64,000 bases of DNA from an uncultured Gemmatimonadales bacterium. Lineage in GTDB: Bacteria > Gemmatimonadota > Gemmatimonadetes > Gemmatimonadales > GWC2-71-9. Below, piece after piece: positions 15,051 through 17,264 of this stretch. The first letter of the stretch is position 1, and the number at the start of each line of letters is the position of its first letter. The stretch is taken from the NCBI GenBank assembly GCA_963730185.1, contig CAVSQW010000015.1, forward strand, positions 224,001 to 288,000, given 5' to 3'. Under the pieces are notes generated by a model. It saw only the letters and a program-made list of their open reading frames with translations, searched no databases and was not told where the DNA came from. The position numbers were made by a program, and so were the translations under genes.

Positions 15051-15764
15051 GTGCGCCGCGCGGACTTCGAGTCGATGGTCCGGCGGATGACCGACGAGAT
15101 TCCGCCCGAGTTCCTGGACGGGGTGGCCGAGATCACGGTCTCGCCCCGGACGGTGCCGCACCCCGCTCGGCCGGACGTATACACCCTCGGGGAGTGCCTG
15201 GCCCTCCCGGCCGGTCTCGACGAGCCCGATCAGGTCCAGAGCCGGGTGGTGCTTTACTACGGATCGTTCGCGGCCCTCGCCCGGGAGCACCCGAGCTTCG
15301 ATTGGCAGGCCGAGGCCTGGGAGACCCTGACTCACGAGGTCCGCCACCACGTCGAATGGCGCGCCCGGGCGCCCGACCTCGAGGCGCTCGATCGGGCGGC
15401 CGAGCAGAACTTCGCCCGGATCGACGGCGAGCCGTTCGATCCCACCTTCTATCGTGACGGCGAGCGGCTCCCCGATGGGGTCTATCGGGTGGAAGACGAT
15501 TATTTTATCGAGTTGGCCGGGCCGGTGCGGACCGATCGGAACATCGCCTTCCGGTGGGCCGGCCGGGGATACGCGGTGCTCCCGCCCCCCGATCTGGCGC
15601 CGCCGGCCTTCCTGGCGGTGAGCGGGGTGGCCGAGCCGCCGCCCGGCGACCTGATGCTGGTATTCCCGCCGCCGCGCGGGCTTCGGGGCTTGCTCCGGGC
15701 TCGATCGGCGGCCCAGTACGACGTGAGCGCCCGCCCCCTGGGGGACGGGCCGGCAGCCGACTAG
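15051..15764 (+). CDS. Zincin-like metallopeptidase family protein with C-terminal extension
   Basis: VVLYYGSF ... ETLTHEVRHH (HExxH). Confidence 0.75.
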   Translation: MRRADFESMVRRMTDEIPPEFLDGVAEITVSPRTVPHPARPDVYTLGECLALPAGLDEPDQVQSRVVLYYGSFAALAREHPSFDWQAEAWETLTHEVRHHVEWRARAPDLEALDRAAEQNFARIDGEPFDPTFYRDGERLPDGVYRVEDDYFIELAGPVRTDRNIAFRWAGRGYAVLPPPDLAPPAFLAVSGVAEPPPGDLMLVFPPPRGLRGLLRARSAAQYDVSARPLGDGPAAD

Positions 15765-15820
15765 CGGGCCCATCCCGCCCTGGACCGGGACCGACGGTCC
15801 ACTCGAACCCCGAGCCGCGC

Positions 15821-16087
15821 ATGGTGCACGAGACGACCACCCCGCTTCCGCCCGCCGAGATCATCGCGCGGGCCAAGCGCTTCTTCGCCGAGCGGGTCCC
15901 GGCCACGGCGGCCTATCCCGAGAAGGAAGGGCCCACCTTCCTCACCCTCCGGGGACAGGGCGGGGAGGAGATCGCCCTGGCCGCCTTCCCGTCAGACGCC
16001 GGGACCCGGGTCCGCGCCTCGACCCTGCTCTTCGATCAGTCGGTCGAGCGTTTCCTGTCGACCCTCCCCGTGGAGGTGGTGGCATGA
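15821..16087 (+). CDS. Hypothetical protein (88 aa)
   Basis: Coding-like codon usage; stop overlaps next ATG. Confidence 0.75.
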   Translation: MVHETTTPLPPAEIIARAKRFFAERVPATAAYPEKEGPTFLTLRGQGGEEIALAAFPSDAGTRVRASTLLFDQSVERFLSTLPVEVVA

Positions 16088-16341
16088 GCGCCCTGCCGGT
16101 CCGGGTGATGGTCCTCGACACGTGGGACGAGTTTCCGTTCGACGTGAGCCCCGAGACGACGGTCACCGCGCTCAAGGCCGAAGCCCTGTCGCGGGCCCGG
16201 GTCCGGGGGGCGCCCGAGGGCTACGTGCTCAAGTACCGCGGCGCCGCGGTCGACGAGGGCCAACAGACCGTCGGCGGCGCGGGTATCGTGCCCAATGCCG
16301 CCCTGATCGTGCTCTCCAGGCGGCGCGTTCCGGCCAAGTGA
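16084..16341 (+). CDS. Ubiquitin-like beta-grasp protein (YukD/EsaB or Ub-like) without C-terminal GG
   Basis: FDVSPETTVTALKAEA and PEGYVLKYRG...T...GI...AALIV align by eye with ubiquitin; GGAGG RBS. Confidence 0.72.
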   Translation: MSALPVRVMVLDTWDEFPFDVSPETTVTALKAEALSRARVRGAPEGYVLKYRGAAVDEGQQTVGGAGIVPNAALIVLSRRRVPAK

Positions 16342-17264
16342 CGTCACCGGCCGACGGCGGGGGCCGGCTGGCCCCGGTCTTCTCCCATCCGTCCTGTTTT
16401 GCCCACGATCCCGGCGGGCATCACCCGGAGTCGCCCGGGCGGCTGCGAGCGATCCGGGACGCGGTCCAGGCGGCCGACCCGGCCGGCTGGCAGGAGGTCG
16501 GTGCCGCCAACCTCGATTCGCTGCTCCGGGTCCACCCCCGGGAATACCTCGACGGCCTGGCCGAGCTCTCGGCCAAGGGCGGAGGCCGGCTCGACCGCGA
16601 TACCGTAATCAACGAGGCCAGTTGGGAGGCGGCGTTGGGCGGGGCCGGCGCCGTGCTGGCCGCGCTGGACAGCGCCCTCAAGGGCGAGCCCGCGTTTGCG
16701 GCGGTACGCCCGCCGGGGCACCACGCCCTGGCCGACCGGGCCATGGGCTTCTGCCTGGTGGCCAACGTGGTGGTCGCGGCCCGCGAAGCCCAGAGCCGGG
16801 GCCGCGACCGGGTCCTCATCCTCGATTGGGACGTCCACCACGGCAACGGCACCCAGGCGCTGATCGAGGACGATTCCTCGGTCCGCTTCGTCTCGATGCA
16901 CCAGTGGCCGCACTGGCCCTTCAGCGGCGGGGCCGACGAGCGCGGGGTCGGCAACGTCTTCAATCTCCCGCTCCGGGCCGGGCTCCCACCCGACCGCTAC
17001 CTCGAGACGTTCTGGGCCGGGGTGGAACGCGCGACCACGGACTGGACTCCCGATCTGATCCTGATCTCGGCCGGGTTCGACTCGATGCGAGGCGACCTGC
17101 TGGGCGGCTTCACCCTGGAGCCCGAGCACTACGCCGAATGGGTCATCCGCCTCCTGGCTCGATTCGAGGAGGTGCCGCTGGCGGCGGTCCTCGAAGGCGG
17201 CTACGTCCCCCGCCGCCTGGCCGCCGGCGTCGTGGCCGTGGCCGAGGCGCTCTCCGCGGGCTGA
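16338..17264 (+). CDS. Histone deacetylase family (Zn-dependent deacylase)
   Basis: HPESPGRL, RPPGHHA, GFC, DWDVHHGNGTQ, SAGFD, LEGGY; GTG overlaps the Ubl stop. Confidence 0.93.
   Translation: MTSPADGGGRLAPVFSHPSCFAHDPGGHHPESPGRLRAIRDAVQAADPAGWQEVGAANLDSLLRVHPREYLDGLAELSAKGGGRLDRDTVINEASWEAALGGAGAVLAALDSALKGEPAFAAVRPPGHHALADRAMGFCLVANVVVAAREAQSRGRDRVLILDWDVHHGNGTQALIEDDSSVRFVSMHQWPHWPFSGGADERGVGNVFNLPLRAGLPPDRYLETFWAGVERATTDWTPDLILISAGFDSMRGDLLGGFTLEPEHYAEWVIRLLARFEEVPLAAVLEGGYVPRRLAAGVVAVAEALSAG

Follow-up and report, generated by a model that had tools for sequence, protein, structure and literature searches.

A pair of small overlapping genes, encoding an 88-amino acid (aa) protein and an 85-aa ubiquitin-like protein (Ubl), is the conserved unit in a 64,000-nucleotide (nt) stretch of DNA from an uncultured Gemmatimonadales bacterium (assembly GCA_963730185.1, contig CAVSQW010000015.1, positions 224,001 to 288,000), here called the window. 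The modeled structure places the Ubl in the ubiquitin superfamily with a β-grasp fold, and its gene is a near-universal single-copy core gene of Gemmatimonadales and of a sister clade, not of the whole phylum, and not a gene of defense islands. The Ubl family with its dedicated partner is real and apparently new to the literature; no description was found among the titles and abstract openings listed, with supplements and subscription papers outside that scope. An earlier, sequence-only reading of this DNA had proposed a system of four genes, with the Ubl coupled to a lysine deacylase and placed next to a zincin protease. A four-gene unit of this kind is not supported. The two core members are the following.

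15821-16087, + strand: 88-aa protein, no Pfam family, predicted β-α-β4-α fold, KA1/TBP-like (helix-grip-related); core member
16084-16341, + strand: Ubl, 85 aa, ubiquitin-superfamily β-grasp, Arg-rich C-terminal tail without Gly; core member

Fold and C-terminal tail of the Ubl

As a single sequence, the Ubl matches Pfam families only below their cut-offs (TUG-UBL1, E 0.006; ubiquitin, E 0.025). Of 104 candidate homologues, 102 are retained at E ≤ 0.001, and those with names are all from Gemmatimonadota. A profile of 69 sequences from the family, compared with the PDB, has ubiquitin chains at the top (E 5e-5 to 1e-4) and recovers the register of the alignment with ubiquitin that had previously been made by eye. 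The AlphaFold2 model (predicted local distance difference test, pLDDT, 90.1) was matched by Foldseek to ubiquitin-superfamily structures with E ~1e-6 and TM ~0.75-0.8, so the predicted β-grasp stands; the matching folds include NEDD8, ubiquitin, SUMO, ISG15, and the bacterial BilA-type Ubl. With VIA the model gave Z 12.5 (root-mean-square deviation, rmsd, 2.3; 79 residues aligned), and a second comparison gave Z 13.1 (rmsd 2.5; 80 aligned).

The C-terminus, RRRVPAK, has no di-Gly, as first read, and no Gly follows residue 69. Gly is likewise missing from the last six residues of 102/102 homologues and of 236 of the 237 complete Gemmatimonadales open reading frames (ORFs), the remaining one having Gly, and conjugation through a C-terminal Gly is therefore excluded for the window protein. 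Basic residues make up a mean of 4.6 of the last seven positions in Gemmatimonadales. Lys31 and Lys50 are invariant in 238/238 loci of the order, and Lys50 aligns, in the profile alignment, with Ile44 of ubiquitin, part of the Ile44 patch. The Ubls of one family, f2, are also longer at the N-terminus, by a conserved stretch of about 25 residues.

Distribution

Occurrence was tallied with a 90-sequence profile against 301 genomes of the phylum, including four unpublished genomes (G055, G155, G180, and G095), on which no conclusion rests by themselves. Families f1 to f3 belong to the window's order, Gemmatimonadales, while f5 and f6 make up the sister clade, in which the Ubl has a terminal Gly (the Gly clade). 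The profile matches 219/301 genomes: 123/125 in f1, 68/70 in f2, and 3/3 in f3 (194/198 for Gemmatimonadales), as well as 1/1 in f5 and 23/23 in f6. The same profile has no match in f4 or in f7 to f12, and 59 genomes picked from the negative set were also without a match to a wider profile, in a run that had no positive control. Every listed genome except one has a single match. Carriage by phages was not confirmed for any of 31 pattern hits in viral contigs. One locus labeled Bacillota (L008) has the full Gemmatimonadales-type arrangement at ordinary identity and is probably from a mislabeled bin.

Adjacency of the 88-aa gene and the Ubl

The sequence-only reading had linked the Ubl to the 88-aa gene, and this linkage is conserved. 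A gene of the 88-aa family is directly upstream of the Ubl in all 233 Gemmatimonadales loci with sufficient flank, and the two overlap (ATGA, GTGA, or TTGA) in 226 of them; this count may repeat genomes, and 223 distinct pairs are left after de-duplication. In the Gly clade, the upstream gene belongs to the same family in 72/72 metagenome loci, with an overlap in 56/75. In most of the six f6 loci mapped, the pair has genes on the opposite strand on both sides, and therefore the pair outlasts all other neighbors. The pair has no match in PADLOC or NCBIfam, and a scan for promoters and terminators gave nothing beyond chance. No RNA runs were listed either.

The 88-aa partner and its paralogues

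The 88-aa protein has 2289 homologues but no Pfam family and no sequence match in the PDB. Mean identity is 71% for this protein, 60% for the deacylase, and 51% for the Ubl. Its model (pLDDT 88.4) has a predicted topology the same as that of KA1/TBP-like domains, such as the C-terminal domain of CIPK14, the KA1 domain of Chk1, and BamC, with Z from 9.3 to 8.0 (seven chains at Z of at least 8), values that are barely above background; the best Foldseek E is 0.004. The KA1-type matches include the vertebrate conserved region (VCR) of METTL16. The protein differs from these domains in being stand-alone and bacterial and in having no sequence match to them. A possible Rosetta-stone relationship to residues 89-165 of the MoaD-related protein 1v8c is no more than a lead, with a Z of 7.1 that falls within background and no Pfam or PDB sequence support; 1V8C is not mentioned in PMC1949818 or PMC1779556. 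No fusion of the 88-aa protein to the Ubl was seen, in a set for which no search at longer lengths was made: in the two long hits P0128 and P0131, the N-terminal part is unlike the 88-aa protein and seems to be read in the wrong frame.

With a wider profile, most Ubl-bearing genomes have two members of the 88-aa family, and genomes of f4, f7, and f8 have one, where they have any. The second member in Gemmatimonadales precedes genes named by eye as pyruvate dehydrogenase (PDH) genes, copies in f7 precede a DEAD/DbpA helicase gene, and in eight loci of f5, f6, and f8 a paralogue is directly before moaD-moaE, although no 88-aa-family gene precedes moaD in five loci of f2, f4, and f7. The PDH-linked and helicase-linked copies rule out the generalization that every paralogue precedes a β-grasp gene. 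In the window genome, the second paralogue (C15:439106-439396, outside the window) has neighbors that resemble, by eye, a CDP-alcohol phosphatidyltransferase, an inositol-1-phosphate synthase, and pyruvate dehydrogenase E1. The moaD-linked paralogue (L153-L160) follows an ihf-like gene where this could be seen. The f8 proteins have a Gly-rich tail, GPGxSGAG, and the f7 copies before the helicase have a similar GGPGSG stretch (L171-L180).

In a maximum-likelihood tree of 68 family members, the Ubl-linked genes of Gemmatimonadales group with the moaD-linked genes (support 95/89), and the Ubl-linked genes of f5 and f6 are nearer to the PDH-linked copies (82/89). This topology suggests that the Ubl changed its partner within the 88-aa family. 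Such a swap between paralogues is the favored and probable reading of the tree, with a single clade of all Ubl-linked genes not rejected by the approximately unbiased (AU) test on 41 of the 68 rows (p-AU 0.189).

The Gly-tailed sister clade

The Ubls of the two clades are homologous (HHalign probability 98.5%, E 4e-15). The Gly-clade proteins end in H-x-x-x-F-x-G, with a variable residue, mostly Glu or Arg, between Phe and Gly. The F-x-G ending is found in 119 of the 120 top-ranked proteins out of 518, and in 79/79 complete loci, and the scan patterns used for these proteins did not contain the terminal Gly. Named hits are "Candidatus Palauibacter sp.", metagenome-assembled genomes of Gemmatimonadota, and one entry labeled Acidobacteriota. 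The Ile44 position has Glu or Asp in 75/80 loci, the other five being unparsed. The median net charge is -6 for the Ubl and -2 for the 88-aa partner. In f6 the two-gene unit is upstream of a Na/alanine symporter gene on the opposite strand and the DEAD/DbpA helicase gene. In one genome (G239, locus L382) a Prok-E2_E gene adjoins a ThiF-domain gene at a position unrelated to the pair.

Neighboring genes in the window

On re-reading, the four ORFs of the proposed system, their coordinates, and both of their start/stop overlaps are as first described. The 88-aa stop and the Ubl start share ATGA, the Ubl stop and the deacylase start share GTGA, and a gap of 56 nt separates the zincin-like gene from the 88-aa gene. 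The genes around the pair are listed below.

13701-15032, + strand: glycine-tRNA ligase (glyS); context and synteny control
15051-15764, + strand: zincin-like ORF with HEVRH (HExxH), Pfam Zincin_1 (PF06262) at 24.9 bits against a cut-off of 22.4; outside the conserved unit
16338-17264, + strand: deacylase of the histone deacetylase (HDAC) family, classical Zn-dependent type, Pfam Hist_deacetyl E 2.6e-74; co-directional neighbor across Gemmatimonadales
17378-18403, + strand: enolase-superfamily racemase/epimerase, DgcA or Ala-Glu epimerase-like, below equivalog cut-offs; synteny control

The family assignments made from sequence for the two outer genes were confirmed, with the HExxH motif present and Zincin_1 over its cut-off for the zincin, and with Hist_deacetyl matched and its catalytic motifs intact (His-His, Asp-x-His, Asp, and Tyr) for the deacylase. 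The substrate of the deacylase cannot be read from sequence, and its action on acyl-lysine in proteins is only putative.

Membership in the system is a separate matter. Among the 80 closest loci, which form the close-synteny set and in which misses come partly from contig ends, the 88-aa gene recurs in 79, the deacylase in 79, the epimerase in 77, glyS in 71, the zincin in 67, and priA in 58. The genes for glyS, the epimerase, and priA are as syntenic as the deacylase, and therefore close synteny says little. At greater distance, the zincin is a neighbor in f1 and f3 only: it is by the Ubl in 3/3 f3 loci, but in 0/26 of f2, 0/11 of f5 and f6, and 0/42 Gly-clade metagenome loci, and its proposed place in the system was not upheld.

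The deacylase is within 700 nt of the Ubl in 77/77 of the closest loci, 106/113 of f1, 15/40 of f2, and 3/3 of f3. Thirteen f2 genomes chosen because they had no adjacent deacylase were checked for other copies: in 11 of them a copy on the same strand lies 7-8 kb downstream, a twelfth carries the gene on another contig, and the last lacks it. In f5 and f6, the closest deacylase is elsewhere in the genome, with 0/47 Gly-clade loci linked. The deacylase is thus a co-directional neighbor across Gemmatimonadales and unlinked in the Gly clade, and within the order its linkage is no tighter than that of glyS or priA; a functional link is unproven.

Several insertions and flanking genes were also seen. 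The gap between the Ubl and the deacylase is wider than 150 nt in 39/78 loci, and most of these hold a conserved two-helix membrane-type protein of about 87 aa. A gene for a protein of about 375 aa, whose start resembles a signal peptide, frequently separates the zincin from the 88-aa gene, a GAF histidine kinase gene precedes the pair in 22/29 f2 and f3 loci, and in one locus (L128) the deacylase is followed by genes for a GvpL/F-like protein and a Ser/Thr kinase. In the window, a peroxiredoxin-like ORF (by eye) and an OsmC-family ORF on the minus strand (18645-19955) converge on the end of the operon. Positions 8150-13589 contain two divergent runs of genes, prepilin-like and with N-terminal methylation-type motifs, the last prepilin-like gene being apparently split over two frames (ORFs ending at 13110 and 13589).

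Possible roles of the pair

The preferred reading, which is tentative and is given slightly less than an even chance, is that the Ubl stays unconjugated and forms a 1:1 complex with the KA1-like 88-aa protein, and that this pair serves as an adaptor or assembly factor on a housekeeping complex. It is preferred because of the fold, the Gly-free tail, the core distribution, and the strict overlapping adjacency. Translation coupled through the overlap would supply the two proteins in equal amounts, and these would bind each other one to one. The Lys50 face, corresponding to the Ile44 patch of ubiquitin, may form, together with the Arg-rich tail, a docking surface for a conserved housekeeping protein complex, on which the pair would act as an assembly or adaptor factor by analogy with YukD and TmoB. 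The deacylase is probably a co-transcribed neighbor and the zincin probably a lineage-specific insertion. The sequence-only reading had likewise suggested a non-conjugated Ubl adaptor; the fold, the missing C-terminal Gly, and the 88-aa linkage agree with that suggestion, while the adaptor role itself is what we infer.

A number of observations weigh against the adaptor reading. In a mean-field coevolution analysis of the 223 pairs (effective number, Meff, 147), which has little power, the top z was 5.0 compared with 4.8-5.0 after shuffling, while the control comparison of the 88-aa protein with the HDAC-family protein gave a higher z of 6.3. In genus g58 (loci L151 and L152, two genomes) the Ubl has been cleanly lost, but the 88-aa gene is still there and abuts the deacylase. 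Members of the 88-aa family are also present in f4, f7, and f8, for which the searches gave no Ubl, and the PDH-linked paralogue of Gemmatimonadales has no β-grasp gene with it. ATGA-type overlaps are common in the window genome, that of the deacylase included. The charges of the Gly-clade Ubl and its partner, both negative at the median, are not complementary, and the invariant terminal Gly of that clade is more in keeping with covalent attachment than with action as an adaptor.

Four other explanations were weighed. In an acylation-controlled module, which is thought unlikely, an acyl group on a lysine of the Ubl or the 88-aa protein, with Lys50 as the candidate, would be removed by the deacylase, and the binding face of the adaptor would be switched in this way. 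Consistent with this hypothesis, Lys50 is invariant where the deacylase is linked and replaced by Glu or Asp in the Gly clade where it is not, but this match amounts to a single evolutionary event. Throughout the order the deacylase follows in the same direction, also where a MoxR block precedes it (11/13 genomes), and genomes that have lost the Ubl still have the deacylase beside the 88-aa gene; however, the equal synteny of glyS, the epimerase, and priA, the frequent intervening genes (the small membrane protein or MoxR-DUF58-BatA), and the presence of similar deacylases in f4 and f7 genomes without the Ubl all argue against a dedicated module. The nearest bacterial structures to the enzyme are 5zmp, described as a "lysine deacylase", and 5ji5, and the catalytic motifs are intact, although bacterial classical deacylases include hydrolases of polyamines and small molecules (PMC11532494, in excerpt). 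The main text of that paper, to the same extent, does not mention Gemmatimonadota or ubiquitin. The Ubl could instead be a modifier that has been disarmed: the ancestor would have been activated at a C-terminal Gly by a housekeeping MoeB/ThiF enzyme, as would still occur in the F-x-G clade, while the Gemmatimonadales form, having lost this Gly, would act non-covalently only. The exact terminal Gly with Phe two residues before it and the homology of the two clades speak for this doubtful possibility, as does a MoeB-rhodanese gene that 11/12 f6 genomes carry on the same strand, 4-11 kb upstream, with a JAB gene beside it in one. This MoeB, however, has a ThiS/MoaD-type neighbor of its own, and genes on the opposite strand intervene between it and the Ubl. 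MoeB/ThiF enzymes take Gly-Gly tails, but the residue before the Gly in this clade is mostly Glu or Arg. In addition, 7/13 f5 and f6 genomes have only this one ThiF match, JAB matches occur in 3/9 f6 genomes, Prok-E2_E was found in 1/2 f6 genomes and at an unrelated locus, and the direction of the tail change cannot be rooted.

Binding of nucleic acid or acidic lipid was considered from the composition of the tail. The Arg-rich tail would bind RNA as in SF3A1, and the KA1-like partner would contribute binding to RNA or to membranes, with ribosome assembly as one possible setting. The ubiquitin-like domain of SF3A1 binds RNA through a C-terminal RGGR tail (PMC8833184, in excerpt), and its RNA-bound structure is among the fold matches of the Ubl (Z 11.4). 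The abundance of basic residues at the end of the Ubl, the METTL16 VCR among the matches of the partner, and a DEAD/DbpA helicase gene after the pair in 29/30 Gly-clade loci would fit this proposal, which nevertheless seems improbable: the helicase link is confined to the clade without a basic tail, the Ubl of that clade is acidic, that of the Arg-tailed clade is near neutral (+1), and a common fold proves no function. An adaptor or engagement tag for an AAA+ unfoldase, either MoxR or ClpX reading the basic-hydrophobic C-terminus, is very improbable. Known ClpX tags of the MuA type are C-terminal, basic and then hydrophobic, and MoxR-DUF58-BatA is directly after the Ubl in 11/29 f2 and f3 loci, with a stop/start overlap in L113 and L123. 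The block does not adjoin the Ubl in f1, where the deacylase is within 700 nt, or in f3, f5, or f6 loci, and it sits between the Ubl and the deacylase like an insertion. A further possibility is a housekeeping Ubl system of class Gemmatimonadetes in transition, which is considered quite improbable. In such a system, the F-x-G Ubl of the Palauibacter-type clade would be covalently activated by the sole MoeB-type E1 of the cell without any E2, the KA1-like protein serving as adaptor or acceptor, and the Ubl of Gemmatimonadales would have swapped its partner, exchanged the Gly for an Arg-rich tail, and become a non-covalent signal switched by acylation of the Ile44-patch lysine.

Significance

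Most of what is known of the nearest bacterial counterparts of ubiquitin comes from defense operons of patchy occurrence (Bil and Bub) or from type VII secretion systems (T7SS; YukD). A vertically kept, single-copy core Ubl of an entire order, with a dedicated partner that has no known family, suggests that bacteria also use the ubiquitin fold for housekeeping. Together, the two clades make up a natural experiment, with an Arg-rich tail and Lys in one and a terminal Gly and Glu in the other, each behind a gene of the 88-aa family, and this contrast makes a shift between conjugated and unconjugated use testable. Of most interest for further work are the Gly-tailed clade and the probable swap of partners; if the pair is only a small structural complex, then the interest is moderate. 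Both proteins are shorter than 100 residues and easy to study, and cultured Gemmatimonas strains exist.

Comparison with known systems

The sequence-only reading had set the Ubl apart from ThiS/MoaD, from YukD of the T7SS, and from the bacterial ubiquitination systems Bil and Bub, and the distinction is supported by its lack of Gly-Gly, of T7SS genes, and of a Bil/Bub operon. It had also reported no E1, JAB, ThiF, or T7SS gene in the window, which agrees with genome-wide scans in which the ThiF hits and one JAB hit below cut-off were all outside the window. No dedicated E1 for the Ubl was found. For E2 enzymes at the locus, Prok-E2_E was not found, the UQ_con scan was uninformative, and other prokaryotic E2 families were not scanned. 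WXG100, EssC, and Prok-E2_E were not detected in the window genome, which is 82% complete. In a set of five genomes, WXG100 was found in none (control positive in Bacillus subtilis), EssC in none over the cut-off, with FtsK-sized matches only (one control over the cut-off), and Pup ligase in none (control positive in Corynebacterium).

ThiS and MoaD have the β-grasp in common with the Ubl, and the 88-aa paralogue before moaD-moaE in f5, f6, and f8 is a further point of contact; the window Ubl differs in having no Gly-Gly, no ThiS match in Pfam, and no linkage to ThiF/MoeB, MoaE, or ThiG. The window genome has separate Gly-Gly carriers, beside a MoeB-type gene and beside a gene that reads as thiG. 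A MoeB/ThiF-rhodanese gene outside the window (C15:451914-453043) is split over two frames by a frameshift or an assembly error, and an intact copy is present at C6:362533-363696. YukD, MoaD, and ThiS are absent from the top 50 fold matches of the Ubl, which does not exclude kinship. DUF2604 (PF10790) is weakly matched by 35/69 members of the Ubl family (best E 2.9e-4) and is carried by 14-62% of the members of neighboring Atlas clusters, but it is not matched by the window protein.

YukD/EsaB (PF08817) is, like the Ubl, a stand-alone bacterial β-grasp protein without a conjugating Gly, and PF08817 is matched at E ≤ 0.1 by 34/69 members of the Ubl family (best 1.4e-6), although not by the window protein. 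YukD is not conjugated (PMC1779556, in excerpt) and binds YukB and YukC in the assembly of type VIIb secretion (PMC12637312, in excerpt). It differs from the Ubl in its T7SSb context, while the Ubl has a small KA1-like partner and a conserved Arg-rich tail. Together with TmoB and RnfH, YukD belongs to the bacterial β-grasp adaptors and assembly factors (PMC1949818, in excerpt). TmoB, a subunit of toluene-4-monooxygenase, is an unconjugated Ubl in a complex, has Z 10.8 to the window Ubl, and is weakly matched (PF06234) by 4/69 family members; it differs in that no monooxygenase genes are among the scanned neighbors of the Ubl. Among structures, a Ubl of the BilA/BubA group matches best (8tyx_A; Z 13.1, rmsd 2.5, 80 aligned), level with ISG15 and ubiquitin. 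Bil and Bub operons encode a peptidase along with an E1 and an E2, and they depend on a C-terminal Gly that is exposed (10.1101/2024.11.21.623966 and 10.1101/2023.09.26.559546, both in excerpt), while the window Ubl has no Gly to expose, no E1, E2, or deubiquitinase in its operon, and no PADLOC match. Bil and Bub operons are also sparsely distributed (10.1101/2024.11.21.623966, in excerpt), whereas the Ubl described here is a single-copy core gene.

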